A stretch of 64,000 nucleotides of DNA from Trueperaceae bacterium. Lineage in GTDB: Bacteria > Deinococcota > Deinococci > Deinococcales > Trueperaceae. The notes under the pieces are model-generated. The model was given only the letters and a program-made list of their open reading frames with translations. It was not told where the DNA came from and ran no database searches. Made by a program: the position numbers and the translations under genes. How positions within the stretch are numbered: position 1 is the stretch's first letter; every line of letters starts with the position of its first letter. Positions 8,697-58,865 of this stretch are shown piece by piece. The stretch spans positions 1,184,001 to 1,248,000 of the forward strand of contig OZ243927.1 in assembly GCA_965213925.1 (NCBI GenBank), in the 5' to 3' direction.

Positions 8697-9469
8697 AGCT
8701 CTCCTTTTCTTATGTTGCAGCGCGCCTCGTTCGTCCCTAGTTGATTGCGGCGTCAGGTCCGCTCAGTTGGAGGGTCTTTATGCGAACGCTCGAGCCTCAT
8801 AACGGGCTTGGGACTTCAGGGCGCGCAGCGCTCGCGTCACTTAAAGGGTACCCAGGGGTCCTTTAGACGACTGTGGGCGGTGCCGCCAATTCACGCTTTC
8901 CGCTCGGTCGCTTTGCCGCTCGCATTTGTTACAGCAAACTCAAGGGTGAGCCCGCAATCTCTAGCGGGAGCGTGCCCCGCGCAATGCGGCGTTGCTACGG
9001 CTAGAAGTAAACATGGTTGATTAGCTAATGCTCGAGCCTTGCAAAAATATATGAACCCGCCTGGAGACGCATTTCTTTACCCAAAGCTTTTAGCTATCAA
9101 CGGTCGGATATTCGCTCAAAAGCCTTTGCTGAAAGCTAAGGGCTCATTGCTCGGCGTTAAAACGTTTTACAGTCAATGAGTCAGTGCAAAACGTGAGTAA
9201 TGGCAACGTATAGAGCCGCTGCAAGCACCGCTTTCACCGCGCTCCTTTCACTCACTCTTTATTTTCTTCATCGTTCGGACCTGAGCACGCGACCTCATGT
9301 TACGCTAATGTGGAAAACTTCACACGCGGACCTTAGCACTACGCTTCGGGGACGGCACCTACCGAGGACGACCTCAAGATTTTCGCTCTGGAACGGCGGC
9401 GTAACACCTACCCGCTTACACTCACGTATCACCGGGGGCGCACAACGTGCGACCGAAACAGGGGGTTTC

Positions 9470-9724
9470 ATGAACTTGCTACGCACCACACCGACGACAA
9501 CCGCGAAGCCAGACCTAAAAACCGAAGTGGACCTAGGCGCTGAGCGAGAGACGCCGAGCTTGAGCGCCCGACTCGCCTGGCAGTTTGCGGTCGTGCTCAT
9601 TTTGCTCACCACGTTTTGCTTAGGTTTTCCGCAGTTTCACTACACCGCCGCGCTGATGGTTGCTGCGATCCTCCGCTACAAGGATACGCCCGGCGACATC
9701 TTCGCGCCCGTCTCATTCGGATGA
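9470..9724 (+). CDS. Small hypothetical membrane protein
   Basis: GGGGG RBS before ATG 9470; two hydrophobic segments; stop overlaps next ATG. Confidence 0.5.
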   Translation: MNLLRTTPTTTAKPDLKTEVDLGAERETPSLSARLAWQFAVVLILLTTFCLGFPQFHYTAALMVAAILRYKDTPGDIFAPVSFG

Positions 9725-10344
9725 ACCCGCGAGTCAAGTCACGAGTGATGCGGCTTGCGCTGCTCCTACTCGCGCTGGGTTTCGCTCACGCGCTAGCGCA
9801 GTCTCATCAACCTTTGAACGAGTCGGACGTGCGCGTAGAAGCGTCCCCGTACGAGACCCCGAGCGTCGCGCAACTGCGCGCCCTCCCCGCCGAAAGCTGG
9901 CCGGCTGACGTCGGCGGGCTAGCGCTCCGCTATCATCTGGTCAGTTTGGAAGGGTTCTCGTCGTTAGGGTATTTCGTCTTCTCCCCAGCGACGCAGACGT
10001 GCCATATCTACATCGACACGTGGCTCGCCAACCACGCCAGCCAAGCGGAGCACCTCGCGGTCGTTTTCCACGAGGTCGGGCACTGCGTCGATGCGGTGAC
10101 GTTGCGCTCTAACCACAATGCGTTCGTCCGTGAGGGCTGCGTCTACGGCGCGTATTACTGCGCGCCCGCCGAAGGTTACGCCGAAGCGTGGCGCTACGCC
10201 TACACCGCGCGGTGTGGTCTCGACGCCGCAACGATCGGTTACGAAGTGAACGCCGCTGACGAGTCCGCGACGCGCTGCGCACTTCCGACTGCCGAAGCGG
10301 TGCTGCCGCCACTTTCTGCGGAGCACCTCGCTAACACGCACTGA
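9721..10344 (+). CDS. Secreted HExxH zincin-like hypothetical protein
   Basis: Signal-peptide-like N-terminus (LLLLALGFAHALA); VFHEVGH motif and downstream EGYAE; Cys-rich. Confidence 0.65.
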   Translation: MNPRVKSRVMRLALLLLALGFAHALAQSHQPLNESDVRVEASPYETPSVAQLRALPAESWPADVGGLALRYHLVSLEGFSSLGYFVFSPATQTCHIYIDTWLANHASQAEHLAVVFHEVGHCVDAVTLRSNHNAFVREGCVYGAYYCAPAEGYAEAWRYAYTARCGLDAATIGYEVNAADESATRCALPTAEAVLPPLSAEHLANTH

Positions 10345-10345
10345 T

Positions 10346-10604
10346 TACAGCGTTAATCAAGTTTTGCTACTTATTAGCATGTCACCCTGTTCACGAAGTA
10401 GAGCGAAGCTTCGGCGAAGGCGTAAGGGTCTCGGTTGGCTATGCCAAAACTGTGTAACTTTCGTTCTCTGTCAGAGGAGTCAGCAAGGTCAGAGATTCTT
10501 ACACTCCGCTTCGCTCTCCTTCGGTTACGTAGTTTTCGCTTTTGCGAAAGGTACTGACGTGAACCGTTCAGAATGACGTGTTTCATCTTTTGGCTAACAG
10601 TGTA
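10346..10604. mobile_element. MITE-like repeat family A copy with nested micro-insertions
   Basis: Ends TACAGCGTTAA / CTAACAGTGTA; flanks CTGAT / CTAAT; core TGTCACCCTG...GGGTCTC...GAGATTCTT...CAGAATGAC shared with other copies. Confidence 0.85.
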
Positions 10605-10695
10605 CTAATGATTATGGCAGGTGTATAGGGCACGCTAAATAGCGAAGCTCAATCTACCTCGGACGCAGGTATTGATTTAGAACTAGATGCTGACT

Positions 10696-10983
10696 TTAGT
10701 GCGGGGCTCTGGCGTGCTGAGGTCTGTGACGCGGCGCGCTCTTGGCTGCGTTACTGGTCAAATAGAAGAGGTCTGCAAGCTCCATATTGATGTTGAGCAG
10801 CTCTTTATCTCTAGGACCGCGGCGCAGCCGCTCTTTGCATGAGCTGACCTTCTGAGCGATGCGTTCGCCCTCGTTCGCGCCGTAGCGCCGCCCCGGTAGG
10901 GGTTGCAAGCGGCCTTCGATGCGCTCGATGAGCCCATAGGCTGCGCCCCTATGTTGTTCCCTTTGGTGCTTCGAAAGTTTCAT
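10696..10983 (-). CDS. Hypothetical protein
   Basis: 95-aa ORF with GAGG RBS upstream; no recognised motif. Confidence 0.4.
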   Translation of the reverse strand: MKLSKHQREQHRGAAYGLIERIEGRLQPLPGRRYGANEGERIAQKVSSCKERLRRGPRDKELLNINMELADLFYLTSNAAKSAPRHRPQHARAPH

Positions 10984-11629
10984 GTATGAGTACCTCGTTA
11001 ATCTTTATAACAATATTATCATGACAAACTTCTTACGTAAAGAGGTTAAAGCACGCAAACGCACCAAAATGGAGTCCGCATAAGCGTGTCAGCCAGAGCG
11101 AGTTTCTTTCGTCTACGACAGCACTGATGAAAAAAAGGTGCGTTTGCGAGGTGTTTAAGGTCGCGCGAGCGCTCTAGCTAAAACTACGTTGCTCGAGGAC
11201 GTCTACATCAACATTGCCGACAGATGAACTGACCCCACGGCGATAGAGCCTTTGTCGTAGCGGCGTGTCACTACTCAGACACGCTTTTTTGAACCACCAG
11301 AACAACTGAATCTAAAACGTAACGCTGGCGGAACGGGCGTTTGAGAACAATGTGAAACAGAGGTTAGACATGAGGCGCTCGCCGCTAGGGAGTGCGGCGA
11401 GCCATCATGACGTCCTCGCTGTCAATTGCGCTATAGGTGGCTCTTCACACAGCCACAAGGAGCGCGACAAGGCAGCAACGCCCACACATAGGAGGTTCTT
11501 AAAACTACGTCTCGCTACGCCTTTTCCTTCTTCACAAGAGGCTACGTTTTGCCTGAGTGTCACCTTCCCACGGTCCGCTTCCTAGTGACCCAAGGCGCTC
11601 ACGCACCACTCAACAGTACAGGAGTTTAG

Positions 11630-13900
11630 ATGAGAAATACCAACCCTACAAAAGCCTTGACCTTCGCGTTAGGCTTTCTCGCGCTGTTCGTCTTAGCAGC
11701 TTGCTCGGACGTCGCGTTGCGGGAGCCAGGCGTCGCCATCGAGGTGCAAGCCATCGCCGACGAGGTCGATACGGTGACCCTCGAGGTCAACGGTCAGGTC
11801 CTCTCGAAAGACGCCACGAGCGGCTCCGTGACCTTTAGCCTTAAAGACCTTCCGCTCGGTCAAACGACCTTCACGGCGCGCGGTTTAGACGGCGACATCG
11901 TGCTCTACAAGGCGAATAAAACCGTCAACCTCGTCGCCAACCAGCCTCCGGTGTCTTTGACCATGAGCCGCATCAGCAGCAGCGTCACGGTCGACGCTAA
12001 GGTTGCGAGCGGCGCGGCGCTGAGCGACGACGAGGTCGTCGTCGCGAAGGTCGCGGGTGGGCTCACACAGCGGCTGGTCGTCAGTGGTGACGGCAAGAGC
12101 GCAACGGGTACGCTCGCGGGCGTCCCAACGGGTATCAATACCCTTACCGTCAACGTGTACGAGGACATGACCTTAGCGACGTTGACGCGCCAAGGCAGCA
12201 CCGAAATCGCCCTTTCGGAGGACGACATCACCGTTCCGGTCGATCTCGTCTCGCTGACCTCGAGCCAAGTTGCGCCAGACGAGCCTGTTATCACCTTGCC
12301 CACGGAGCCTGTTGTCCAGGGCGAGGCGTTCGATATTTCCGTTCAGGTGAATGACGCCAACGGCGACCCCTTGAGCGTGAAAGTCATCTGGGGTGACGGC
12401 AACGTCAGCGCGCCTAAAACGGCCAACGACCCTTACAGCGCGCCTCTGACGTTCACGCACACCTACACAGCGCCAGACACCGAACAAGACATTACGGTTA
12501 TCGTTGATGACGGCGCGCTTAGCGCTCAGGACACGAAAACTGTTCAAGTCACTATTCCCGCGGACGACACCACCGACGTGGACGTCATCATCGACACCGA
12601 AGAGCTGAGCACCGTGACGCTCACCGTGACGGACGTGCCGGCGAGCGCCAAGCAGGTCCAAGCCGTGATCACGCCAGCCAGCGACGCTGAACTCACCTCG
12701 CTCGACCTCAAAGACGAATACGTGGTTGAACTCGTTCCCCAAGGCGGCGGCACCTGGAGCGCGACGGTCGGGTTGCCCCAGAACGTCACCTATAGCGCAA
12801 CGACGAACGCGCTCGACGAGAACGGCGCGGTTATCGCCTCGAACGAAGTGACCTTTACGCCCACTGAGAAGACGACGAACGTTTCCTCGGTCCTCACTGA
12901 CGGTTCGGGCGGCACAGGCGACGACAACGCCGACCCCGTTGCAAACGCCGGAGCCGACAAGACCGTCACCGACAGCGATAAAAGCGGTTTCGAAAGCGTG
13001 ACCTTAGACGGCTCTAAAAGTGCAGACAGCGACGGCAGCATCGTCAGCTACACGTGGAGCGCAAACGGCGTGAGCATCCCGGCGGGCGCGTCCACCTCGG
13101 CTGACTTCCCCGTGGGCAGCACGACGGTTACGCTCACCGTCAAAGACGACGACGGCGCGACCGATACCGACAAAGTCATCATCACCGTCAAAGCGCCCGC
13201 TGTGCCAGACAACAAAGCCCCTACCGCCGACGCCGGGTCGGATAAAACCGTCACCGACAGCGACGACAACGGCTCTGAGAGCGTCACGCTAGACGGCTCT
13301 GGTAGCTCCGACGACGACGGCACGATCAGCTATAGCTGGAGCAAAAACGGCAACGAGATTGCCACAGGCGCGAAGCCTACGGTAACGCTCGGCGTCGGCA
13401 CGCACACCGTCACCTTGACCGTCAAAGATGACGACGGCGCGACCGACACGGATACCGTAACGGTCACTGTGAAAGCAGCGCCGGTCAGCACCGCGCTCGC
13501 CATCGTACCCGTAAGCACGACCTGCAGCAGCGCCACGAAGGTCGGCGACGCCTGCACCATCTCCGTCGCGCTGAAGAACTATGACGGAGAGTTCTACGGC
13601 TTCGATTTCGGCTTTAGCTTCAGCAACGACAACTACAGCTTGGATTTAGTGACTAAAGGCGCGAACTTAGGTGGCTCATGGTCAGTCTTAGGGTTTACCT
13701 CAGTTTCGGGTGCCAGCTTGAATCCCGCCACGGGAGACGGAGAAATCGCCGTGTTCAACGTGACTAAAGACAAGGCTGGCAGCACGTCATTCGCTACGAT
13801 CATCGACCCCGACCTCCACTTGCTGAACCCTAACGGAAACCCGTTTAGCGGAGCGCCGGTCATCAGGAATATCGAAGCCGGAACCATCAACCTTCCGTAA
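11630..13900 (+). CDS. Lipoprotein with Ig/PKD repeats and C-terminal cohesin-like domain
   Basis: Lipobox LAAC; WGDG PKD motif; two PxAxAGxD...LDGSxSxDxDG...LTVKDDDG repeats; C-terminal all-beta domain with GFDFGFSF and GDGEIAVFNV. Confidence 0.8.
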   Translation: MRNTNPTKALTFALGFLALFVLAACSDVALREPGVAIEVQAIADEVDTVTLEVNGQVLSKDATSGSVTFSLKDLPLGQTTFTARGLDGDIVLYKANKTVNLVANQPPVSLTMSRISSSVTVDAKVASGAALSDDEVVVAKVAGGLTQRLVVSGDGKSATGTLAGVPTGINTLTVNVYEDMTLATLTRQGSTEIALSEDDITVPVDLVSLTSSQVAPDEPVITLPTEPVVQGEAFDISVQVNDANGDPLSVKVIWGDGNVSAPKTANDPYSAPLTFTHTYTAPDTEQDITVIVDDGALSAQDTKTVQVTIPADDTTDVDVIIDTEELSTVTLTVTDVPASAKQVQAVITPASDAELTSLDLKDEYVVELVPQGGGTWSATVGLPQNVTYSATTNALDENGAVIASNEVTFTPTEKTTNVSSVLTDGSGGTGDDNADPVANAGADKTVTDSDKSGFESVTLDGSKSADSDGSIVSYTWSANGVSIPAGASTSADFPVGSTTVTLTVKDDDGATDTDKVIITVKAPAVPDNKAPTADAGSDKTVTDSDDNGSESVTLDGSGSSDDDGTISYSWSKNGNEIATGAKPTVTLGVGTHTVTLTVKDDDGATDTDTVTVTVKAAPVSTALAIVPVSTTCSSATKVGDACTISVALKNYDGEFYGFDFGFSFSNDNYSLDLVTKGANLGGSWSVLGFTSVSGASLNPATGDGEIAVFNVTKDKAGSTSFATIIDPDLHLLNPNGNPFSGAPVIRNIEAGTINLP

Positions 13901-13996
13901 AGAACACCTTAAACCCTCCGAACCCTTACGTTTCATCTAGCACGCCGCGCACACCGAATAGAGAGGTCTATTCGGTGTGCGCGACGAAAGGAGTCT

Positions 13997-16900
13997 ATGT
14001 CTCACCACCTTTCACCTCGCTCCTTGAGAGCCTCCTTGAGCTTTCTCGGCCTTCTCCTCCTCCTCGTCGCCTGCGGTCGGGGCGGACCTTCTGGGGAGTA
14101 CCTGACGACCTACTTCGAAGTGCCAGCAGGCACCGCCGCCTTAGACGCCACCTTGAGCTATGACCCAGCAGCCCTCGAGTACCTAGGCGCAGCCTCAACC
14201 CAAGAGCAGGTCATGGTCGAAGCGAACGCCCACGCCGAGCGCGTCAAGCTCGCTAGCATCACCCTCAGCCCCGAAGGAAAACGCCTCGCCTTCGTGACCT
14301 TCAAGGTCAAACAGGGCGGCAGCGAGCCTAGCTTACAAAGCGCCTCTGCCTACACCTCAGCAGGCACGCCTCTAGGCAGGGTCACCGTGCGCAGCGAGCG
14401 CAGCGAACAAGACCTCGCCGCAAACTACCGCACCCCTGCAAGCCTCACCTCGCAAGCGGTGTCCGCACAAGACTTAGACCTCCAAGCCTCCTTCGCCGAA
14501 CGCTTACTCGGCGACGTCATTCCCGATAACGACAGCAACCCCAGCAACGACCTCAACTCGGTGGACGCCTTAGGCGTCTTGCAGCTCGCAGCAGGTGCAC
14601 TCAGCGCGCCAAGCGACCTGCAGCTCTACCTCGCCGACCTCGACACGAGCGGCACGGTCAACTCTATAGACGCACAAATCTCGCTGCTTAAAGCAGCGGA
14701 CGGCGACCTCGACGCCACCTTGCGGGCGACGCCTGACGCCTTACAACTCGAAGTGGGCGAGACCGGGCTGATCTTAGCGGGCAACGCGGGCAACGCGCCC
14801 TTGACGCTCGCTCTGCCGCAGGTGGACGGTGTGACGATCACGCAAGTCGGAGGCATTGCGAACCAGACGGCGGCTTATGAAGTGACGCCTGGTAGCGAAG
14901 CGAAGAGTGGGCTGATTGTGCTTGATGCGGGGAGTGCGGGGCGTAGAAGCGTCGGGCTACTCGTCAGCGGCGAGCCCATGCCAACTTTTGAACCCATCCG
15001 CATCAACGCGGGTGGCAAGCAGTATACGGACACCTCTGGAAACATTTGGAGCGCTGACCAGCACTTTAACGGCGGCCAAAATTGGCCCTCTACGCCCAAA
15101 AACGAGCCTATCGCGAACACCGAAAACGACGAACTCTATCAGACCGAGCGTAGCGCCAGCAAAGACCTGGGAACGTTTAGCTACGACATCCCTGTCGGCA
15201 GCGGCAGCTACACCGTCAAGTTGCACTTCGCCGAAATCTATTTTGGCGCGACCAACAGCCCTAGTGGACCCGGAGGCGCGGGCAAGCGCGTTTTTAGCGT
15301 CGATATTGAAGGTCAGAGTGACCTCTCCGGCTACGACATCAACGCCGACGTAGGACCGTCCACGGCGGTCGTTAAGACCTTCCCGAACGTGTCCGTCACG
15401 GACGGAGCCCTATCTCTGGACTTCTCTGCCAGCGTCAACCGCCCCAAAATCTCCGCTATCGAAATTCTCTCGGCAGAACCGACACCCGGCAAGCTCAGCG
15501 CTTCGTCCTCGAGCCTGGACTTCGGCTCTGTTGTCACGGGCAGCAGCAAAACCCAGAGCGTAACGCTGACGAACCTAGGCGAGTCGGGCGACACCAGCAT
15601 CGCTATCTCGAGCGTGTCGGTCGGTGGCGCGTTCAGCACCGACTTCGCTTCGACCACACTCGCCCCGGGCGCGTCGACCTCGTTCGACGTGACCTTCGCC
15701 CCGACTTCGACCGGAAACCAAAGCGCGCAGCTTAAAGTCGTTCACGACGCCCCCAACACGGCTTCGCCGATTACCATCACCCTCTCGGGCGAAGGCGCGA
15801 GTGACAGCGTCCCGACCGAGCCTTCCTTTAACTCGAGCGGTCTCGCAGGTGAATCCTCTAGCAATCCGACCTCGCTGCAGTTCGGTCCCGACGGCCGCCT
15901 CTACGTCGCGCAGCAGAACGGCACGATCTACGCCTACACCGTCGAGCGAGACGGCGCTAACGACTACAAGGTCGTCGATACCGAAGCGATCAACCACATC
16001 AAAAACATCCCTAACCACAACGACGACGGCACGAACTCGGGCGTGAATAACCGCCAAGTGACAGGGATTTACGTCACCGGCACGGCGAGCAACCCGGTGC
16101 TTTACGTCTCCTCGAGCGACCCCCGCATCGGCGCGGGCTCGGGTGGCGGCGACAAAGGGTTAGACACCAACTCCGGCGTCGTCTCACGCCTCACCTGGAC
16201 GGGCTCGAGCTGGTCGCATGTAGACCTGGTCCGCGGTCTGCCCCGTTCCGAGGAGAACCACGCCTCGAACGGCCTCCAACTTGACGAGGTCAACAACATC
16301 CTCTACCTGGCGCAAGGCGGTCACACCAACGCGGGCGCGCCCTCGAACAACTTCGCCTTCTCGACGGAGTACGCGCTCGCTGCCGCGATCCTCTCTATCG
16401 ACCTAAACGCTATCGGTAACACCACCTACGACCTGCCGACTTTGGACGACCCGACGCGCGATAACCTCGCGGACGGCTCCGACCCCGGCGACCCCTTCGG
16501 CGGCAACGACGGGCTCAACCAAGCCAAGCTCGTGCCTGGCGGTCCCGTGCAGATTTACTCGCCCGGCTACCGCAACGCCTACGACTTAGTCATCACCCAA
16601 GCGGGCCGCATGTACACCGTGGACAACGGCGCGAACGGCGGCTGGGGCGGTCATCCGGCGGGCGAAGCGGACGTTCCGAATGAAACGACGATCGGCAGCT
16701 GCACCAACGAATACTTGAGCGGCGAGCCCGGCTCGAAAGGCACCGGACCTGGCGGCGACTCCAAAGTCAACAACAAGGACAACTTGCACCTCGTCACCGC
16801 CGACTTCTACGCGGGTCACCCCACGCCGGTGCGCGGCAACCCGACGGGCGCAGGTCTCTACCTCGACAACCCCTACTTCAAAGGCTGGTTAGAGCCCGGC

Positions 16901-19795
16901 GACGACAGGCTCCCCGCCGACTGGCCGCCCGTCCCTGCAGGCTACGCCAACGCCGCCGAGTGCGACTTCCGCAACCCTGGCGAGACCGACGGCGCACTCG
17001 CGACCTTCGGCGCGTCGACCAACGGCATCACCGAGTACACCGCCTCGAACTTCGGCGGCGCGCTTCAAGGCTCACTCCTCACGGCGAGCTTCGACGGCAA
17101 AATCTACCAAGCTGACCTCAACAGCGCGGGCGACAGCGCCGACATGTCGACCTTCGCCTCGGGCTTCGGCAGCCAACCCCTCGACGTGACCGCGTTGGGC
17201 GACGACGGTCCCTTCCCCGGCACGGTCTGGGCGGCGACCTATGGTGCGAACAACATCACCGTGTTCGAACCCGCCGACTACGGCACCACCTCGGGCGGCG
17301 GGAGTGGCGGGGGCGGCACCCTCGATCCGAACTGCCAGACGACCGCGGCGAACAACCTCAGCGGTGACGAGGACAACGACGGTTACAGCAACGGCGACGA
17401 GATCGACAACGAAACCAACCCCTGCAGCGGAGCCAGCAAGCCCGCCGACTACGACAACGACAAGGTCTCCGACGCCAACGACGCGGACGACGACAACGAC
17501 GGCATCGAGGACGTAAACGACGCCTTCGCGCTCGACGCGGACAACGGCACCGAGACGAGCCTCCCCTACACCAACGAACTCTTCAACGACCAGAGTATGG
17601 GCTTCTTCAGCACTGGCTTGACCGGTCTGATGACGAACGGCACGACGGACTACTTAGGGCAATTCGACCCGGTCGAACTCGTCGCGGGCGGCACCTCCGG
17701 GTTACTCACCGTCCAGTCGGTCACCGAGGGCGACAGCTGGCAGGGCAACAACACGCAAGACAACGCCTTCCAGCTAGGCGTCGACGTCAGCGAAGCGACG
17801 GGTCCTTTCACCGCGATGGTGCAGATTAACGGCGACTTCTTCGACAACGACGCGCCTAAGAACTACCAGTCACAGGGGATGTTCATCGGCACGGGCGACC
17901 AGGACAACTACCTCAAAGTGGTGCTGCGCGGCAACAACGGAACGAACGGTTTCCAGGTCGCGTTCGAAGATGGCGGCAACAACAAAGTCGACACCAAGAC
18001 CACCGTCGACGGTGTTTTAGACGCAGACAACATCCAACTCTACATCAGCGTCGACCCTGTCGCTGGCACCGCCCAGCCTAAGTACGCGCTTAATGGCGGC
18101 GCGGTAACTAACTTAGGTACGCCCATCACGCTCTCTGGCGACTTGCTGGACGCGGTCAAGGGCACCTATACGGTGAACGGCAAAGCCTCCGCGCTCGCGG
18201 TCGGCATCATCTCGACCTCGACGAACTCGGGCGACCCCTTCATCGCCACCTGGGACAAGATCATCGTCACAAAAGACGCGCCCCAAGTAGCGGCGAACCC
18301 GCAAGCGCTCGTCGAGGTGACACCTAACTCGAACAAGCTCGACGCCTCAACTTACGGCTCAAACTCCTTCAAGATCACCAACATAGGTGATACGAAGATC
18401 ACGAGCGTCACCTTCGACACGACCTCGGCCCTCTTCCCTGACCTCGCCTTCGACCCCGTCGGCGGGGCGGGGGACAAAACGGCGAAGTGCCTCACTAAAA
18501 ACGATGACGACGGCGTTGGTCTCTTGACCGACGCGCCGGGCGGCTCCTCGAGCGGCTGCACGGACGGCTTTAGCGGCGCGTTCGGTGGCGGCTACGCCGT
18601 GCTCACACTGGACTTCGGCGACTTTGAGCCAGGCGAGACCTTAGGCTTCTCCGTCGACATGGACCCGACCAGCACCAAGGGTAGCTCCTCGCCGGGTGCG
18701 AACCACGCGGGCAGCGTGTCGGGGTTGGAGCTTTCGGGCTCGAGCGTCACCATCACCTTCGCAAACGGCAGCACCTTGTCGGGCTCGCTCTTCGGGGACG
18801 GTACCCTAGCAGGCGCAAACGCGACAATCAAAGCCGACGCGCCCGCCAAACCAACGCTCAATACGTCGTTCACACCTAACGCGACGACCAGTGTTGCAAG
18901 TCAGACCGTCACCGTATCCGGTGTTCCTGCGGGCGCAACGGTCAAGCTCTTGCAAGTCGAGGGCGGTTTATTCGAGCAGACCAGCCCGGCGGTCTCCCTC
19001 TTCGACGTTGACGCTTTTGAAGCGAACAGTGCTGTAAAAGTGACGTACCTCTCCAAGAGCGCCTTCGGCGGCAGCGCGACGTTTAACGTCACGTTGAGCG
19101 AAAGCAGCGACGACTTAAATCCAAATAATGGTACGCCCTACAGCACCCAAGACATCGGGCTCAACCACTTCATCGCCGCGATTCAGGATGCCGACGGCGA
19201 CGTCAGCGTCACTTCTGATGTCAAGGTCGTGCGTTACGACCCGGCGACAGCCTCCTCACCGACTGTCCTCTACCGCGTGAACAACGGCGGCGCAGCCATC
19301 GCCGACGCGGAACTCGAGTGGTCAGCCGATCAGTCGGTTAGCAATACGGGGGGTGCGGCCTCTAAAGGCACGCCCTCGCCCTACCTCGATTTGAGCACGG
19401 GTTTCGATAAAACCTACGGTCCCAACTCCTTCACCATCGACAACAGCACCGGAGCACCCGACACGCTCTTCGCCACCGAACGTTACAGCGACGCAGCGAA
19501 CCCCAACAACATGCACTGGGACTTCCCGGTGAGTAACGGAACCTACGAAGTGCGCCTCTACTTTGCCGAGAACTGGTCCGGGGCGGCGAAAGCCGGCGTG
19601 CGTGTGTTCGACGTAGAAGTCGAAGGTGCGCTCGAGCTTGATGACTACGACGTCTACGTGGCGGCTGGCAACAGCATCAACAAAGCCGTCGTTGAAACCT
19701 TCAACGTAACGGTTTCGGACGGAAACCTGGACATCGACTTTATCAAAGGCGCGCAAAACCCAGCCGTTAAAGGCATCGAGATCGTCAAACCCTAA
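13997..19795 (+). CDS. Large modular lipoprotein: cohesin-like + dockerin-like, malectin, Ig, beta-propeller, Asp-rich Ca-binding repeats, unknown domain, malectin
   Basis: Lipobox LVAC; RINAGG...LHFAEIY...KRVF malectin motifs (twice); NPTSLQFGPDGRLYV propeller; DxDNDG repeats. Confidence 0.85.
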   Translation: MSHHLSPRSLRASLSFLGLLLLLVACGRGGPSGEYLTTYFEVPAGTAALDATLSYDPAALEYLGAASTQEQVMVEANAHAERVKLASITLSPEGKRLAFVTFKVKQGGSEPSLQSASAYTSAGTPLGRVTVRSERSEQDLAANYRTPASLTSQAVSAQDLDLQASFAERLLGDVIPDNDSNPSNDLNSVDALGVLQLAAGALSAPSDLQLYLADLDTSGTVNSIDAQISLLKAADGDLDATLRATPDALQLEVGETGLILAGNAGNAPLTLALPQVDGVTITQVGGIANQTAAYEVTPGSEAKSGLIVLDAGSAGRRSVGLLVSGEPMPTFEPIRINAGGKQYTDTSGNIWSADQHFNGGQNWPSTPKNEPIANTENDELYQTERSASKDLGTFSYDIPVGSGSYTVKLHFAEIYFGATNSPSGPGGAGKRVFSVDIEGQSDLSGYDINADVGPSTAVVKTFPNVSVTDGALSLDFSASVNRPKISAIEILSAEPTPGKLSASSSSLDFGSVVTGSSKTQSVTLTNLGESGDTSIAISSVSVGGAFSTDFASTTLAPGASTSFDVTFAPTSTGNQSAQLKVVHDAPNTASPITITLSGEGASDSVPTEPSFNSSGLAGESSSNPTSLQFGPDGRLYVAQQNGTIYAYTVERDGANDYKVVDTEAINHIKNIPNHNDDGTNSGVNNRQVTGIYVTGTASNPVLYVSSSDPRIGAGSGGGDKGLDTNSGVVSRLTWTGSSWSHVDLVRGLPRSEENHASNGLQLDEVNNILYLAQGGHTNAGAPSNNFAFSTEYALAAAILSIDLNAIGNTTYDLPTLDDPTRDNLADGSDPGDPFGGNDGLNQAKLVPGGPVQIYSPGYRNAYDLVITQAGRMYTVDNGANGGWGGHPAGEADVPNETTIGSCTNEYLSGEPGSKGTGPGGDSKVNNKDNLHLVTADFYAGHPTPVRGNPTGAGLYLDNPYFKGWLEPGDDRLPADWPPVPAGYANAAECDFRNPGETDGALATFGASTNGITEYTASNFGGALQGSLLTASFDGKIYQADLNSAGDSADMSTFASGFGSQPLDVTALGDDGPFPGTVWAATYGANNITVFEPADYGTTSGGGSGGGGTLDPNCQTTAANNLSGDEDNDGYSNGDEIDNETNPCSGASKPADYDNDKVSDANDADDDNDGIEDVNDAFALDADNGTETSLPYTNELFNDQSMGFFSTGLTGLMTNGTTDYLGQFDPVELVAGGTSGLLTVQSVTEGDSWQGNNTQDNAFQLGVDVSEATGPFTAMVQINGDFFDNDAPKNYQSQGMFIGTGDQDNYLKVVLRGNNGTNGFQVAFEDGGNNKVDTKTTVDGVLDADNIQLYISVDPVAGTAQPKYALNGGAVTNLGTPITLSGDLLDAVKGTYTVNGKASALAVGIISTSTNSGDPFIATWDKIIVTKDAPQVAANPQALVEVTPNSNKLDASTYGSNSFKITNIGDTKITSVTFDTTSALFPDLAFDPVGGAGDKTAKCLTKNDDDGVGLLTDAPGGSSSGCTDGFSGAFGGGYAVLTLDFGDFEPGETLGFSVDMDPTSTKGSSSPGANHAGSVSGLELSGSSVTITFANGSTLSGSLFGDGTLAGANATIKADAPAKPTLNTSFTPNATTSVASQTVTVSGVPAGATVKLLQVEGGLFEQTSPAVSLFDVDAFEANSAVKVTYLSKSAFGGSATFNVTLSESSDDLNPNNGTPYSTQDIGLNHFIAAIQDADGDVSVTSDVKVVRYDPATASSPTVLYRVNNGGAAIADAELEWSADQSVSNTGGAASKGTPSPYLDLSTGFDKTYGPNSFTIDNSTGAPDTLFATERYSDAANPNNMHWDFPVSNGTYEVRLYFAENWSGAAKAGVRVFDVEVEGALELDDYDVYVAAGNSINKAVVETFNVTVSDGNLDIDFIKGAQNPAVKGIEIVKP
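14049..14953 (+). repeat. 905-bp direct repeat, copy 1 (N-terminal anchor cassette)
   Basis: Near-identical to 19931-20835 at offset 5882. Confidence 0.95.
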
Positions 19796-19893
19796 TTCAC
19801 GCCTAGAGACCGTTAGATAAGCTCGGCGGTCTCTACCTACAACCTCTACATTCGAAGCCAACCCACCTCGTTCATCTTCGTAAAGGAAAGACT

Positions 19894-22800
19894 ATGTACC
19901 GACGAAACCTCACGCTCACCCTAACGATAAGCCTTCTCCTCCTCCTCGTCGCCTGCGGTCGGGGCGGACCTTCTGGGGAGTACCTGACGACCTACTTCGA
20001 AGTGCCAGCAGGCACCGCCGCCTTAGACGCCACCTTGAGCTATGACCCAGCAGCCCTCGAGTACCTAGGCGCAGCCTCAACCCAAGAGCAGGTCATGGTC
20101 GAAGCGAACGCCCACGCCGAGCGCGTCAAGCTCGCTAGCATCACCCTCAGCCCCGAAGGAAAACGCCTCGCCTTCGTGACCTTCAAGGTCAAACAGGGCG
20201 GCAGCGAGCCTAGCTTACAAAGCGCCTCTGCCTACACCTCAGCAGGCACGCCTCTAGGCAGGGTCACCGTGCGCAGCGAGCGCAGCGAACAAGACCTCGC
20301 CGCAAACTACCGCACCCCTGCAAGCCTCACCTCGCAAGCGGTGTCCGCACAAGACTTAGACCTCCAAGCCTCCTTCGCCGAACGCTTACTCGGCGACGTC
20401 ATTCCCGATAACGACAGCAACCCCAGCAACGACCTCAACTCGGTGGACGCCTTAGGCGTCTTGCAGCTCGCAGCAGGTGCACTCAGCGCGCCAAGCGACC
20501 TGCAGCTCTACCTCGCCGACCTCGACACGAGCGGCACGGTCAACTCTATAGACGCGCAAATCTCCCTTCTTAAAGCAGCAGATGGCGACCTCGACGCCAC
20601 CTTGCGGGCGACGCCTGACGCCTTACAACTCGAAGTGGGCGAGACCGGGCTGATCTTAGCGGGCAACGCGGGCAACGCGCCCTTGACGCTCGCTCTGCCG
20701 CAGGTGGACGGCGTGACGATCACGCAAGTCGGAGGCATTGCGAACCAGACGGCGGCTTATGAAGTGACGCCTGGTAGTGCGGCGCAGAGTGGGCTGATTG
20801 TACTCGATGCGGGGAGTGCGGGGCGTAGAAGCGTCACGATGCTCGTCAAAGATGCACCCTCGAGCCTACCGACCATCACCCTCACCACGCCCGCTGACGG
20901 CGCGACGCTGACAGGCGACTCCGTCGACCTCTTCTGGAACATCGAGCTTTTAGAGTCCGACGACCACGTCCACGTCTACGTCGACGGCGAGAAGAAAGAG
21001 GGCTCGGTCGACCCGAAAGCGCCTTACACGCTCGACTTCGCGGATAAGAACATCGAGCCGGGTCAGCGCGTGCTCGAGGTGCGCGTGTCCGACGCACTCC
21101 ATACCGAATACACCAACCCCAAAGCGTCCGACAGCATCACGGTAACGCTCGAGGCTGCTCCTGCCACCGGCGACGTACTCTACCGCGTGAACGCAGGCGG
21201 ACCCGAACTCGCTGCAGCGGACGGCTCTGCGCCCGCCTGGAGCAAGGACAGCACCGCGGCGGTCGGCAGCACGAACGCCTCTCCCTACCTCACCGCTGGT
21301 GACGCTAAACTCTATAATGACGGTATCGGAAGCGCCTACAAGGGTGACGTCACCATGTCCTCGACTCTTCCCGCGAGCGTGCCGAGTGCTCTTTTCAGCA
21401 CCGAGCGCTACGACCCCGCATCGCCTGAAGAGATGGCGTGGGCGTTCCCGGTCGCCGTCAACCAAACCGTTGAAGTGCGCCTCTTCTTCGCCGAAATCTT
21501 CTCCGGCGTAGACGCAGCAGGTCAGCGCGTCTTCGACGTGGCGGTCGAGGGAGACGTTCCGCCAGCTTTTAACGACATCGACCCCTTCGCAACCGCGGGC
21601 GCTAAAGGTGCCTTCATGCGCTCACACACGCTCACAGTGACGGACGGAACGTTGAATATCGACTTCTTGCACGACGTTATCGAAAACCCTGCGATTAAAG
21701 GCATCGAGATCGTCACAAGTGACGGCAGCGCGAGCAACGTACCGCCGCAAGTCCAGACCATCCCCAATCAGACGAGCGTCGAAGGCGACGGCACCGAGGA
21801 CTACCTCTTGAGCATCTCCGCGAACGACGCCGACAACGGTCCAAGCAACTTGACGTATAGCGCGACGGGACTGCCGTCCGGCGTTCAGGTCGAGCCGACG
21901 AACGGACAGATTTTCGGAACGATCGCCGCAGGCGCAGCCGCGAACAGCCCCTACACCGTGACGGTCACGGTCAGTGACGGCGCGAACATCGACCAGACGT
22001 CGTTCACTTGGGCGGTCTCCGAAACCGCGAGCGGTAACCCCGCCGCGCTCATCAAAGTCAACGCGAACGCCGGTCTCTTCGCGAGTACTTACGGCGACAA
22101 CTCGTTTCAGATCAGTAATACGGGCGACAGCAACATTGAACGCATTACCATCAACGCGAGCACCTCGTTCCTACCCGACGTTGTCTTCGACCCGGTCGGC
22201 AAAGCGGGCGACAATGGCGCGAAGTGCTTGACGACAGGTTCGGCTGGCAACACGGCCGCTCAAGTCGGGCTCATCTACCCGGCGAATGGTGGCAGCGACG
22301 CCGCGGACTGCGTGGACCCCTTCTCCGAGCCTCATAACGGTGCGAACGACGAAGAAGGTTACGACAAGCTCGACCTCGTCTTCACGGCGGGCGACGGCTT
22401 TAACCCAGGCGAGTCCTTCGCCTTCGGCGTGGACATGGACCCCACCAGCATTAAGGGTGACGGGAGCACGGGCGATGCGGGCTCGATCTCCGGCTTCGAG
22501 TTGATCGGCGCAACCGTCACCGTCGAATTTGCGAACGGCACCGTGACCTCGAGCCTCTGGGAAGAAGGCAGCTCAGGCGGCTCCCAAGTGGTCGTCGCAC
22601 CTGGCGCACCTAGCAGCCTAGTCATAAGCGCGGCGAACGTCAGCGGTAGCCAAGCAGAGGTTAGTGGCGCGGCGCAGACCATCACCCTGAGTGGACCTGC
22701 AAATGCAACGGTCACGCTCCTACGCGCGGACGCTCGCCTCTACATCGACGCGGGCGGGGGCGGCTACGACATTGACCCCTTCGAAGCTAACGAAGTGCTC

Positions 22801-23640
22801 GCTAAGCAGCTCTACACCACAACGCTAAACGGCAGCGGTAACGGCAGCGTCAACGTCACGCTGACACAGACCTCGAGCCCCAACGCCGGACCAGACGCCG
22901 GGCTCAACCACTTTATCGCCGTCGCCAAAGGCAGCGGCGCGCAGACCAGTCTCACCTCGAACGTCATCGTGTTGGACTACAGACCGGAAACGGGCGGCAC
23001 AGAGGGCGACGACGCCTCGGGCGCGTTCGTTGAAGAGAACGGTTTAGTGGTTATCGAGATGGAGTCGGGCAACTTCCCTAGCGGCTGGGCGTCCGAAACG
23101 GTGTTCTCAAACTTCACGGGCAGCAGCTACTTGCGCTATGACGGCAACAACCACTTCAACAACCCTGGCGTTGACGTGATCACGTACAAGGTCAACATCA
23201 CTAAAACTGGAACGTACCGCTTCCAGTGGCGCAGCGCCTTCGGCGCAGGCAACAACGGCACAGAGCATAACGACTCGTGGCTCAAGATCGAGTCGGACAG
23301 CTTCTACGGCAAGCAAGGTTCTGGCATCGTCTGCCCCAAAGGGTATAACTCTAGCGAGAATAGCTGCGTCGGCTCAGCGCCAGAGGGCGGCGGCGGCGGC
23401 GGCTGGTTCAAGGTCTACCGCAGCGGCGGCAGCGTGGGGTCGTGGTCGTGGACAGCCAACACGAGCGACAACGACGCCCACCAGATTTACGCCGACTTTA
23501 GCGCTCCCGGCACCTACACCATCTCGGTGAGCGGACGCTCGGCGGAGCACGCGGTCGACCGCATGGTGCTCTACCACAGCTCAGTGAACGGCGGCGCGGC
23601 GACCAGCCTGAGCAACCCCGAGTCACCTCGCGAACAGTAA
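19894..23640 (+). CDS. Modular lipoprotein paralog: same cohesin/dockerin-like N-terminus, Ig, malectin, He_PIG-like Ig, unknown domain, C-terminal beta-sandwich
   Basis: Lipobox LVAC; YRVNAGG...LFFAEIF...QRVFDV; YSATGLPSG Ig repeat; GAFVEENGLVVIEMES domain. Confidence 0.85.
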   Translation: MYRRNLTLTLTISLLLLLVACGRGGPSGEYLTTYFEVPAGTAALDATLSYDPAALEYLGAASTQEQVMVEANAHAERVKLASITLSPEGKRLAFVTFKVKQGGSEPSLQSASAYTSAGTPLGRVTVRSERSEQDLAANYRTPASLTSQAVSAQDLDLQASFAERLLGDVIPDNDSNPSNDLNSVDALGVLQLAAGALSAPSDLQLYLADLDTSGTVNSIDAQISLLKAADGDLDATLRATPDALQLEVGETGLILAGNAGNAPLTLALPQVDGVTITQVGGIANQTAAYEVTPGSAAQSGLIVLDAGSAGRRSVTMLVKDAPSSLPTITLTTPADGATLTGDSVDLFWNIELLESDDHVHVYVDGEKKEGSVDPKAPYTLDFADKNIEPGQRVLEVRVSDALHTEYTNPKASDSITVTLEAAPATGDVLYRVNAGGPELAAADGSAPAWSKDSTAAVGSTNASPYLTAGDAKLYNDGIGSAYKGDVTMSSTLPASVPSALFSTERYDPASPEEMAWAFPVAVNQTVEVRLFFAEIFSGVDAAGQRVFDVAVEGDVPPAFNDIDPFATAGAKGAFMRSHTLTVTDGTLNIDFLHDVIENPAIKGIEIVTSDGSASNVPPQVQTIPNQTSVEGDGTEDYLLSISANDADNGPSNLTYSATGLPSGVQVEPTNGQIFGTIAAGAAANSPYTVTVTVSDGANIDQTSFTWAVSETASGNPAALIKVNANAGLFASTYGDNSFQISNTGDSNIERITINASTSFLPDVVFDPVGKAGDNGAKCLTTGSAGNTAAQVGLIYPANGGSDAADCVDPFSEPHNGANDEEGYDKLDLVFTAGDGFNPGESFAFGVDMDPTSIKGDGSTGDAGSISGFELIGATVTVEFANGTVTSSLWEEGSSGGSQVVVAPGAPSSLVISAANVSGSQAEVSGAAQTITLSGPANATVTLLRADARLYIDAGGGGYDIDPFEANEVLAKQLYTTTLNGSGNGSVNVTLTQTSSPNAGPDAGLNHFIAVAKGSGAQTSLTSNVIVLDYRPETGGTEGDDASGAFVEENGLVVIEMESGNFPSGWASETVFSNFTGSSYLRYDGNNHFNNPGVDVITYKVNITKTGTYRFQWRSAFGAGNNGTEHNDSWLKIESDSFYGKQGSGIVCPKGYNSSENSCVGSAPEGGGGGGWFKVYRSGGSVGSWSWTANTSDNDAHQIYADFSAPGTYTISVSGRSAEHAVDRMVLYHSSVNGGAATSLSNPESPREQ
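19931..20835 (+). repeat. 905-bp direct repeat, copy 2
   Basis: Near-identical to 14049-14953. Confidence 0.95.
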
Positions 23641-23660
23641 AACGACGCCTTCACACTTTG

Positions 23661-23696
23661 ACCTCTCTCCTCGAGTCAGGAGAGAGGTTCTCTTTT
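23661..23696 (+). terminator. Probable intrinsic terminator closing the lipoprotein cluster
   Basis: ACCTCTCTCCT-cgagtc-AGGAGAGAGGT followed by TCTCTTTT. Confidence 0.7.
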
Positions 23697-23778
23697 GGCT
23701 GGCTACCCTGCCTCCGCGCCTCACCTTCCACGTAAACTCACGCCCCACGCTAAGGCCTCTTGCGTGATAGCGTTTGGT

Positions 23779-24048
23779 ATGAAGAATCATGTTTTCGTCT
23801 GCTTCGGCAAGAGCTGCGTTAAGCGCGGCGCGAGAGAGGTCGCGGAGACCTTGCGCGACGAGTTTGGGCGCGAGGGCGTTCAGACCGACGTGCACCGCCA
23901 CACCTGTTTCGACCTCTGCAAAAGGTCTTGCAACGTGATGCTCGAGGTTGGCGACGAGAGGCGCATCTATACGAACATTCACCCTAAAACTGCCTACAAG
24001 ACGGCGGGGCAGATGATCGAAGGGCTCGAGCCAGAAGTTGCTGCTTAG
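23779..24048 (+). CDS. Thioredoxin-like (2Fe-2S) ferredoxin
   Basis: HVFVCxxxxC...CFDLC...NV pattern; start taken at ATG 23779. Confidence 0.8.
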   Translation: MKNHVFVCFGKSCVKRGAREVAETLRDEFGREGVQTDVHRHTCFDLCKRSCNVMLEVGDERRIYTNIHPKTAYKTAGQMIEGLEPEVAA

Positions 24049-25157
24049 CGCTCCGTTTTGCGGATGAGGCTCTCCGCCTCGAGCTTCTCTACATGCGGTC
24101 TCAAGTCGCTCGGCTCTACGCTGAGCGAGCGGGCGACGTCCGCCACCGTGGAGCGGCGGGCGAGTTGCGTCAGCGTCTGCCGTCCGGTGCGTCCGAAGTC
24201 GCGCTCGAAGCGCATGGCGAGTTCGGTCATGGGGTTGAGGGCGTCGCGCCCGCGCAGCGTGAGGTAGTAGCGCTGCTCCTCCCAGCCCGGCGGCTCGCTC
24301 GGCAGATGCAAGCCGGGCGTGCTGTAGGCGGGCGTGTAGAAGCCTAAGTCGTCTCTCAAGACTTCGGCGGTGTGCGCGATGAAGAGGATAGGGAGGCCGG
24401 CGCTGTAGTAGGTGTAGCCCACCGAGGACACCTCGACGCCGTTGCGCTGCTCGCCGCCCTCGCGCTGCTCAGTTTGCGACATTCCAAGGAGGCTGGCGCA
24501 GATTAGCGGAGGGAGGGCGCGCAGCTCGAGCCAAGCCTCACCCCTACCCTCCCGAGGCTGCGCGAACCTCTGGTCAGAAAGCTGCAGCGTCGCCCTGAGC
24601 GCACCGCTACCCCAAGAGGTAGCCGTCTCCGTCCTCTTCCCTTCAGCATCTCTATAAGCTTCATGAAACGCCGCGCCGATGCGCCCGCTGAAGAAGAGCA
24701 TGACGCCCTCTTGACGTTCTTGCTCCCGAGTCTTGACCGCGAGTGTGCCGGTGAAACGCTCCTGGGCGAGCCGCGCGACGAGGGCTCTGAGATCCGTGTC
24801 GTGAAGGCTCAGCCGTTGGCTGCCGAGCGCGGGCAGCGCGCGGAGCACGGCGGCGCTGCTGCGGGGAAAATGGCTGCCGAACTGTGGAAGCGTGTCCGCA
24901 CCGGCGCGGTGGGCGTAGAAGGTGAACGAGAGGTCTGAGGCGCTCAGCTCGAGCGCCTCGCCGAGCGCAAAGTCGCGGTGCTGCCCGCCCTTCCAAAGCC
25001 CTAGCCAGTAGCGCGTGTCGTGGGGGCTGTCTGAGGCGGGGATGGGTTGCTCGAGCAGCAAAGTTCCCGACGCCCGCATTATTTCCAACGCCTGCAGCGC
25101 TCCGTAGCCCGACTGATTCCCGAGCGAGCCGCGCACAGGCTGATTCGACTTCACCAC
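24045..25157 (-). CDS. Hypothetical protein with C-terminal winged-helix-like segment
   Basis: Central FTGTL...GVMLFFSGRI (DUF4388-like) segment; C-terminal TVADVARSL...VEKLEAESLI; start uncertain. Confidence 0.6.
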   Translation of the reverse strand: MVKSNQPVRGSLGNQSGYGALQALEIMRASGTLLLEQPIPASDSPHDTRYWLGLWKGGQHRDFALGEALELSASDLSFTFYAHRAGADTLPQFGSHFPRSSAAVLRALPALGSQRLSLHDTDLRALVARLAQERFTGTLAVKTREQERQEGVMLFFSGRIGAAFHEAYRDAEGKRTETATSWGSGALRATLQLSDQRFAQPREGRGEAWLELRALPPLICASLLGMSQTEQREGGEQRNGVEVSSVGYTYYSAGLPILFIAHTAEVLRDDLGFYTPAYSTPGLHLPSEPPGWEEQRYYLTLRGRDALNPMTELAMRFERDFGRTGRQTLTQLARRSTVADVARSLSVEPSDLRPHVEKLEAESLIRKTER

Positions 25158-44067: not shown

Positions 44068-44458
44068 TGCAAGTTTTGCAGTACTGTTGTCACCCTGTTC
44101 ACGCAGTACGACGAAGTCCGGCGAAGGCGTAAGGGTCTCGTTTGGCAATAGCCAAAACTCTGTAACTTTCAATCTCAGCAAGAGGAGTCAGCAAGGTCAG
44201 AGATTCTTCGACTCCGCTTCGCTCCGCTCAGAATGACATGATTCATTATTTGTCCAACGATGTACTAGTACAGCGTCAACTAAGTATTGATACTTCCTAC
44301 TGATGTCACCCTGAGCGAATGCGTAAGGGTCTCGTCCTCCAATCTCGGCTAGGCAAGAAGGCGAATGCAGAGATTCTTACACTCCGCTTCGCTCTTCTTC
44401 GAAGGTGCTAACGCGAACCGTTCAGAATGACATCACTCATCTTTTAATTTACAGAGTA
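44068..44458. mobile_element. Two tandem MITE-like family A copies (44068-44264, 44269-44458)
   Basis: CTAG at 44064-67, 44265-68 and 44459-62 brackets the two copies; shared family A cores. Confidence 0.85.
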
Positions 44459-44554
44459 CTAGGGTCGGTTTCTCTGCGTACTGACGCCCATCTTCTGATG
44501 CCGCCTCGAGTTTCTGTTACGCTACGGTATAGAGAAGAGAATCGGGGCGAGGCT

Positions 44555-56810: not shown

Positions 56811-57124
56811 ACCGTAGGGCCGAGCAAGGCTTCTGCAACAGACGCGCGCGTTAGTCGCACTGTAGTTCAGGACGTGCGACGGTATCATGGATTTGCGGCT
56901 TAATAAAGTGGCCGAACCGTTTTGACCCCCCTGCAGCGTCAAGCGCCCATAGCTGGGTTCAAAGCACCGCTTGTCGACATGCTCGAGCGCTTCCATTACG
57001 TAATTTTCGCACACCGCGCCAACAACTTGGCTGACCTTCCTTTTGTCGCGCCTCGCTGCTCCGATTTGAAAAGTTGCATCCTGCCCGCATAGGTTACACT
57101 TCATTGCCTCTTTACCCTCTCGAC

Positions 57125-58740: not shown

Positions 58741-58865
58741 TCCGTCACCTTGACCTTGCGACTGGGCACGCGCTCTAGCTGCTGGACCAGCTCGAAGGCT
58801 TTGTAATCTTCGCCTGCCCTAAGGTATTGGTAGGAGGTGTAGCCGTCGCAGCGTTTGCGCTGCGT
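58741..58865 (-). pseudogene. 5' fragment of a gene truncated at the IS3 right end (resembles a membrane dipeptidase N-terminus)
   Basis: AAGGAG RBS then ACG; reads QRKRCDGYTSYQYLRAGEDYKAFELVQQLERVPSRKVKVT up to the IS end; family assignment from memory. Confidence 0.55.

Follow-up and report, generated by a model that had tools for sequence, protein, structure and literature searches.

A candidate non-cellulosomal cohesin-dockerin set on three predicted lipoproteins of a Trueperaceae bacterium

Cohesin-dockerin pairs are known above all from cellulosomes, whose parts they hold together. A dockerin consists of two tandem segments of ~22 residues, each of which runs from a 12-residue EF-hand-like calcium loop into a helix. 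Outside cellulosomes such pairs have been catalogued but, to our knowledge, almost never explained. The pairs of Clostridium perfringens belong to secreted enzymes of a Gram-positive bacterium, with one module type per protein, and the parent proteins of the Archaeoglobus fulgidus cohesin carry cohesin and dockerin on one polypeptide. Here, a three-gene operon of a Trueperaceae bacterium (Deinococcota) is described; it lies in a window of 64,000 nucleotides, that is, the whole stretch of DNA that was analysed (GCA_965213925.1, contig OZ243927.1, positions 1,184,001 to 1,248,000). Genes 2 and 3 open, directly after the predicted lipid-modified cysteine, with a compact unit of ~300 residues composed of a cohesin, a dockerin and an immunoglobulin-like (Ig) domain, and gene 1 ends in a domain, named CohG1, that is probably a second, more divergent cohesin. 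The explanation that we favour, at about even odds, is that three lipid-anchored envelope proteins carry a non-cellulosomal cohesin-dockerin set, in which gene 1 would provide a socket for one or more plugs.

The solved cohesins closest to the module of genes 2 and 3 are those of the C. perfringens NagJ/GH84C and GH33 proteins (2jh2, 2o4e, 2w1n, 2vo8, 2ozn), which were found at Foldseek rank 1 with 27-28 % identity, with VIA Z values of 9.1-9.5 and with a profile E value of 0.005. These modules are likewise placed on carbohydrate-directed surface or secreted proteins and not on cellulases; unlike them, the proteins described here have a predicted lipid anchor and combine socket and plug in one N-terminal unit, and no enzyme domain was detected. 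The A. fulgidus cohesin (2xdh; Foldseek E 3.8e-4, template modelling (TM) score 0.55 on the target) is also non-cellulosomal and from a thermophile-rich lineage, but it is archaeal, shares 16 % identity, and comes without the lipobox-cohesin-dockerin-Ig order or a partner gene that ends in a second cohesin type. Scaffoldins (Acetivibrio cellulolyticus ScaA/ScaB, Clostridium thermocellum CipA; 3l8q, 4u3s, 5k39, 1ohz) unite cohesins and a dockerin on single polypeptides too, and their one to several cohesins compare with the one to three tandem CohG1 copies in the relatives of gene 1. The dockerin of cellulosomal type II pairs is preceded by an Ig-like X module that packs next to it, whereas the Ig domain follows the dockerin here. 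Neither CBM3, an SLH or sortase anchor, nor dockerin-bearing glycoside hydrolases are present.

Because no glycoside hydrolase family was found in Pfam scans of genes 1-3, the system is not a cellulosome; with its one cohesin only, gene 1 also falls outside the cellulosome definition in the conclusions of PMC13487519. Genome-wide, the dockerins comprise the two units and one unrelated dockerin-like open reading frame (ORF). An initial annotation, made by a model from the letters of the window alone, had proposed a non-cellulosomal system, in which domains other than cellulases would be displayed; the lack of glycoside hydrolases in the three proteins and the single cohesin-like domain on the gene 1 stalk agree with its non-cellulosomal nature. 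In a literature search at the level of abstracts, no Deinococcota cohesin-dockerin system was found. The novelty lies in three features: a triad of cohesin, dockerin and Ig in fixed order behind a lipobox, the conserved pairing of this triad, in Thermus and in a second family, with a divergent cohesin at a protein terminus, and the concerted evolution of the triad.

The cohesin and dockerin modules are genuine but very divergent. Whole-protein Pfam scans of genes 1-3 gave no Cohesin or Dockerin match at E<=0.1. When the unit was scanned in separate pieces, Cohesin (E 0.0033; 18.1 bits against a cut-off of 24.1 bits) and Dockerin_1 (E 0.0079; 16.8 bits against 22.9 bits) were the sole Pfam matches. 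The two families expected by the initial annotation were therefore matched by the pieces, but below cut-off, and by none of the whole proteins. A phmmer search with gene 2 residues 30-331 against 1.84 billion representatives returned 61 matches at E<=0.001, two of which were genes 2 and 3 themselves. Alignment A1 was composed of the query and the 36 matches that cover most of the unit (37 rows), with omission of 23 matches that cover the dockerin-Ig part only or are fragments. At E<=0.01, Dockerin_1 was present in 18 of the 37 rows (best 2.2e-10) and Cohesin in three. Compared with solved structures, the A1 profile aligned both loops of ~20 dockerins, with E values from 2.2e-7 (best, 4uyq_B) to 1e-3, and its N-terminal part matched the C. 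perfringens NagJ cohesin (E 0.005-0.01); phmmer of the single unit sequence against the PDB sequences gave nothing relevant. The orthologous module cohesin in genome G202 reaches 24.3 bits, above the Pfam cut-off, and is one of the matches behind the only two genomes, among 301 of the order, with a Cohesin match above cut-off. Judged by their sequences, these cohesins appear to be a divergent branch that is missed by standard annotation. The Thermus relatives are named 'dockerin type I repeat-containing protein' by NCBI.

The gene 2 unit was modelled with A1 by using AlphaFold2 (AF2), which gave a confident cohesin, dockerin and Ig fold with a predicted local distance difference test score (pLDDT) of 93.0 and a predicted TM score (pTM) of 0.90; folded from the single sequence, the unit reached a pLDDT of only 36.9. 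The best PDB match of the model in Foldseek was 2jh2 (E 3.3e-5, 28 % identity, TM score 0.57-0.63 on the target); 2vo8, 2xdh and many type II cohesins were also matched, and cohesins dominate the first 30 ranks. With VIA-align, residues 2-108 were superimposed on 2jh2_C with Z 9.5 (106 aligned residues, root mean square deviation 3.1) and on 1ohz_A with Z 8.0, and residues 207-296 on Ig domains with Z 9-10, including Z 9.9 to S-layer SbsC and ICAM-type Ig. These Z values lie in the range that the tool calls common, and therefore the fold call rests on rank, identity and profile jointly. A wide VIA search, in which the dockerin part was barely probed, found no solved chain that spans cohesin and dockerin together. 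As modelled, the N-terminal domain of genes 2 and 3 is a nine-stranded beta-sandwich of the cohesin type.

To judge from their residues, both calcium-type dockerin loops are intact: in gene 2 (P0002) they read DSNPSNDLNSVD at 179-190 (D179-D190) and DLDTSGTVNSID at 214-225 (D214-D225). The aspartates at position 12 of the loops (D161 and D196 of the fragment) are invariant or nearly so across the family, and helices were placed by AF2 at 159-169, 178-184 and 194-205. A six-residue insertion precedes the first loop, where the pLDDT falls to 76-83. The duplicated loop-helix elements that had been noticed at 14510-14700 and 20392-20582 lie inside the dockerin matches of genes 2 and 3 (Table 1), and the presence of both a cohesin and a dockerin on each large protein, as first suggested, is borne out by the profile, fold, Foldseek and VIA evidence.

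For gene 1, the PKD spacers and the C-terminal beta domain of the initial annotation were recovered as PKD_4 (E 1.4e-18, three stretches, best at residues 528-614) and CohG1. Alignment A4 holds 16 CohG1 relatives from genomes of the same order; Pfam Cohesin was matched by three of these (best 2.2e-5), and no other family by more than one. In the ESM Atlas, 21 of 30 matches to CohG1 fell in the Cohesin set (score 0.93, 184 shared features). Alignment of A4 with the cohesin part of A1 by hhalign covered 107 columns (E 7.5e-4, probability 25 %); the single CohG1 sequence gave no alignment of note with A1 (probability 0.07 %), and phmmer of CohG1 against the PDB sequences returned nothing relevant. 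PF00963 is carried by only one of 11 database matches of the A4 profile. Taken as a whole, these sequence comparisons point to CohG1 probably being a cohesin. Its reading as a C-terminal sorting domain was rejected because relatives have two to three tandem copies as well as internal fusions in front of a dockerin-Ig part.

Of the 301 genomes sampled from the phylum, 32 contain the unit, the window's own among them; one of the 32 (G252) is marked as unpublished. By family, the counts were 22/102 (f1), 7/62 (f3), 2/10 (f5), 0/112 (f2) and 0/14 (f4). Relatives of the unit occur in Thermus igniterrae, which belongs to the same order as the window genome, in other Thermus species and in a 'Deinococcota bacterium' metagenome-assembled genome. 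The Deinococcota-like host that had been guessed from the letters is thus supported, and the architecture recurs in the phylum. For pairing counts, our own hidden Markov models (HMMs; Coh, Doc and Ig from A1, CohG1 from A4) were run on stop-to-stop ORFs. A CohG1-bearing ORF ends directly upstream of the unit gene, on the same strand, at nine of 12 unit loci; the exceptions, within a 1.5-kb flank, are L004 (from G252), L008 and L013. Conversely, 12 of 14 CohG1 loci have a unit gene directly downstream, with L023 and L024 as exceptions. Some places occur in both locus sets (each of the pairs L002/L015, L003/L016 and L026/L028 is a single place), and six of the loci are from Thermus. The distance from the end of CohG1 to the stop is 0-3 residues in all 21 paired entries, and in 18 of them a lipobox-like motif stands shortly before the unit in the downstream frame.

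Domain fusions link the same parts. Protein A of T. igniterrae combines an N-terminal unit with a C-terminal CohG1, and a unit is also present in protein B, which comes next. A domain census that covered 71 database proteins gave 38 with N-terminal cohesin-dockerin-Ig, seven with CohG1-dockerin-Ig (six of them C-terminal), five with the unit and a C-terminal CohG1, eight with dockerin-Ig and no detected cohesin (some being short fragments) and ten with CohG1 only. CohG1 and the module cohesin fill the same slot before dockerin-Ig and, by fusion logic, CohG1 is therefore tied to this dockerin type. The order of a protein ending in CohG1 and then a cohesin-dockerin-Ig lipoprotein is conserved across two families of the order, Thermus included, and together with the fusions it supports a functional link between the CohG1 of gene 1 and the dockerin unit. 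The distance matrices of CohG1 and dockerin gave the highest correlation among the domain pairs (r 0.96; partial r 0.81 given Ig; 15 loci). The window genome holds exactly one CohG1 and two units. Outside the window, the unrelated dockerin-like ORF of the same genome (G000:C1:985883-986974) encodes a small protein with a hydrophobic N-terminal segment, two canonical Dockerin_1 repeats (31.8 bits summed) and an acidic tail; it is not detected by the A1-derived dockerin HMM.

Within the window genome, the proteins of genes 2 and 3 share 96.5 % identity over 310 amino acids at the N-terminal unit. The corresponding DNA tract (918 nucleotides) starts at the signal-peptide core and stops where the Ig domain ends, and its two copies are 98.3 % identical with 16 mismatches. 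A congener, G059, has the same three-gene operon, with gene-by-gene protein identities of 35 %, 50 % and 61 % to the window; its own gene 2 and 3 units are 100 % identical in DNA over 889 nucleotides. Between the two genomes the unit shares 41-42 % protein identity (cohesin 41 %, dockerin 37 %, Ig 54 %), CohG1 shares 36 %, and much of the payload is 60-90 % identical, the malectin domains diverging also. Since the unit is nearly identical within each genome and ~41 % identical between them, it is under concerted evolution in the window genome and in G059. The two units of T. igniterrae are 50 % identical, so homogenisation is not universal. In a third genome of the genus, neither unit nor CohG1 was found. 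The DNA just upstream of the G059 operon (L014:2900-4200) matches window positions 57100-58750, ~45 kb from the operon here, and the three-gene block therefore stands in different contexts in the two genomes.

In the preferred reading, the terminal CohG1 of gene 1 would serve as a socket and accept the dockerin plug of gene 2, of gene 3 or of both in a calcium-dependent manner, and the stalk would thereby be joined to two large glycan-binding proteins in one envelope complex. The cohesin beside each dockerin would either clasp it in cis until exchange or hold its second face. Gene conversion would keep the plug units of genes 2 and 3 identical, because one socket would have to fit two plugs, while the units diverge fast between species.

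Several points weigh against this reading. The window's own cohesin and dockerin stay under the Pfam cut-offs, its own CohG1 copy has no Pfam match, and the A4 profile found no solved cohesin in the PDB. Shared descent alone can yield the correlation of CohG1 and dockerin distances, and conversion between tandem paralogues can be neutral, the T. igniterrae units being only half identical. The pTM of the gene 2 model implies a single rigid body, in which the cohesin may hold the dockerin of its own chain; the cohesin-binding face of the dockerin may thus be taken up in cis beforehand, in competition with any chaining. All three proteins have predicted lipid anchors of their own, so tethering is not needed for their retention at the surface, and a distal socket on a long stalk is awkwardly placed for a membrane-proximal plug in the same membrane.

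Another reading is that the modules are look-alikes, beta-sandwich and EF-hand-like elements without cohesin-dockerin function on three unrelated surface lipoproteins; the sub-threshold scores of the window's own sequences, the whole-protein scans, which show neither family, and VIA Z values of 8-9.5, in the common range, fit this. We nevertheless regard it as very improbable, as the profile matches ~20 solved dockerins at E values down to 2e-7 with both loops aligned, the top Foldseek matches are nearly all cohesins with up to 28 % identity, the three-domain order is kept in 38 of the 71 census proteins, the gene pairing is conserved, and NCBI names the Thermus relatives as dockerin proteins. 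A serious possibility, if on balance an unlikely one, is that each cohesin permanently clasps its own dockerin and forms a rigid, calcium-stabilised base by the anchor, with no contact between the proteins and another role for CohG1, for example in glycan or envelope binding. The pTM of the three-domain model, the conserved linker motif before the dockerin (L133, F137, A138), the separate anchor of each protein and the cohesin-type domain of either subtype directly before dockerin-Ig in 51 of the 71 census proteins all suit such a base. It is less easily reconciled with the eight census proteins, some of them short fragments, in which dockerin-Ig stands without a detected cohesin, and it leaves the CohG1-then-unit gene order, the tandem CohG1 copies upstream and the high CohG1-dockerin distance correlation unexplained.

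In line with the chaining proposed in the initial annotation, the dockerin could instead enter the cohesin of the next subunit by domain swap, and genes 2 and 3 would then polymerise head-to-tail into a chain or lattice on the membrane, with gene 1 as cap or seed. A socket and a plug go together in each unit, and gene 1 offers a socket but no plug; being identical, the units of genes 2 and 3 could stand in for each other, and the Thermus protein A has both a unit and a terminal CohG1. However, the confident monomer model suggests a closed unit, and the S-layer Ig domains among the best Ig matches reach only Z ~10, the level of a common fold; we find a chain of this kind quite doubtful. A variant that we put forward tentatively, and consider unlikely as a whole, is a self-capping connector: the dockerin would rest on its own cohesin in cis and swap to that of a neighbour in trans, head-to-tail polymers of lipoproteins 2 and 3 would form a calcium-dependent protein layer on the envelope, and gene 1 would be a plug-less socket that seeds or caps it. 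Gene conversion, along with rapid co-divergence of socket and plug, would reset the specificity species by species, and the layer would be a lipoprotein-based, cellulosome-derived lattice with species-private 'keys'.

Returning to the socket on gene 1 as the preferred reading, the operon is a small closed system of one socket-only stalk and two giants with socket and plug, and its phylum includes thermophiles that are open to genetic work; the partners are indicated by the domain fusions, and a shared specificity is hinted at by the concerted evolution. If the binding is true, the operon would show how diderm Deinococcota organise large glycan-binding proteins on an unusual envelope, would give protein engineers new orthogonal connector pairs, part of them from Thermus and other thermophiles, and would be a natural case of co-evolution of plug-socket specificity.

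The payload behind the units was characterised by Pfam scans. Malectin, a sugar-binding domain, was found in gene 2 (E 2.8e-54, two domains) and gene 3 (E 1e-16), a HYDIN-type Ig domain in gene 2, and He_PIG and Big_7 in gene 3; the propeller-like region of gene 2 gave weak matches only (GSDH, E 4.5e-4; SSL_N, E 7.5e-4). Of the payload domains first suggested, malectin is thus firmly backed and the propeller weakly. Genes 2 and 3 have in common a domain of ~320 residues (18296-19276 and 22036-23013; 42.5 % identity) that gave no Pfam match and no usable Atlas match. Among the A1 rows, 14 of 37 carry a SASA-type carbohydrate esterase as payload, and other rows carry subtilases, PKD domains or propellers; with payloads this varied, the unit is thus a general N-terminal module. 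The gene neighbourhood in T. igniterrae hints that the unit family deals with envelope or matrix glycans. There, two unit genes (L001:3282-13360) lie within an exopolysaccharide-like cluster, which contains a GH114-like/CBM9 protein, an Agd3-like deacetylase with CBM87 and a DUF3492-GT4 glycosyltransferase and adjoins an ABC peptide/solute transporter.

The three ORFs are separated by gaps of 96 nucleotides (genes 1 and 2) and 98 nucleotides (genes 2 and 3). Bacterial lipoproteins are marked by the lipobox [LVI][ASTVI][GAS]C, and each of the three predicted lipoboxes ends a signal peptide (Table 1). A lipobox-like motif was also found in 23 of 38 relatives that have the N-terminal unit (regular expression on called starts). 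A scan for terminators gave eight terminator-like sites against 14.5 expected from shuffles, and therefore only the strong, well-placed hairpin behind gene 3 carries weight. With the three ORFs, the three lipoboxes and this hairpin, the initial view of three co-oriented lipoproteins that end in one terminator stands.

Table 1. Features of the three-gene operon; positions refer to the window.
Feature	Position	Strand	Description or evidence
Gene 1	11630-13900	+	756 aa lipoprotein stalk: signal peptide, lipobox LAAC (residues 22-25, Cys25), Ig/PKD spacers, C-terminal cohesin-like domain
Two tandem PKD repeats, gene 1	12923-13476	+	direct DNA repeats D2, D3
CohG1, divergent cohesin-like domain, gene 1	13475-13894	+	A4 HMM E 3.2e-38; stops 1 residue before gene end
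Gene 2	13997-19795	+	1932 aa lipoprotein, lipobox LVAC (residues 23-26, Cys26); cohesin-dockerin-Ig, malectin, HYDIN-like Ig, propeller-like region, TSP3-like repeats, unknown domain, second malectin
Gene-conversion tract, copy 1	14049-14966	+	signal-peptide core to Ig domain end, gene 2
Cohesin module, gene 2	14087-14458	+	Pfam Cohesin below cut-off; AF2 model; Foldseek; VIA
Dockerin module, gene 2	14474-14719	+	two 12-residue Ca-type loops, helix after each; Pfam, family profile, AF2
Ig-like domain, gene 2	14720-14983	+	end of three-domain unit; AF2 model, VIA
Gene 3	19894-23640	+	1248 aa lipoprotein, lipobox LVAC (residues 18-21, Cys21); cohesin-dockerin-Ig, Big_7, malectin, He_PIG, unknown domain common with gene 2, C-terminal beta domain
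Gene-conversion tract, copy 2	19931-20848	+	gene 3
Cohesin-dockerin-Ig unit, gene 3	19969-20862	+	own HMMs
Cohesin module, gene 3	19969-20340	+	own HMMs
Dockerin module, gene 3	20356-20601	+	own HMMs
Ig-like domain, gene 3	20602-20862	+	own HMMs
Terminator-like hairpin	23660-23689	+	12-pair stem, then T-run; 20 nt past gene 3 stop

Upstream of gene 1, a stretch of 1.3 kb (10345-11629) has a lower G+C content (0.548), few ORFs and a terminator-like hairpin at 11262-11285; a 95-aa ORF on the minus strand (10696-10983) gave no Pfam match, and an Rfam scan of 8600-24200 gave no match. Elsewhere in the window, a 1319-aa fusion (44405-48364) combines a CheB methylesterase, a CheR methyltransferase, PAS domains and a HisKA_3/HATPase histidine kinase.

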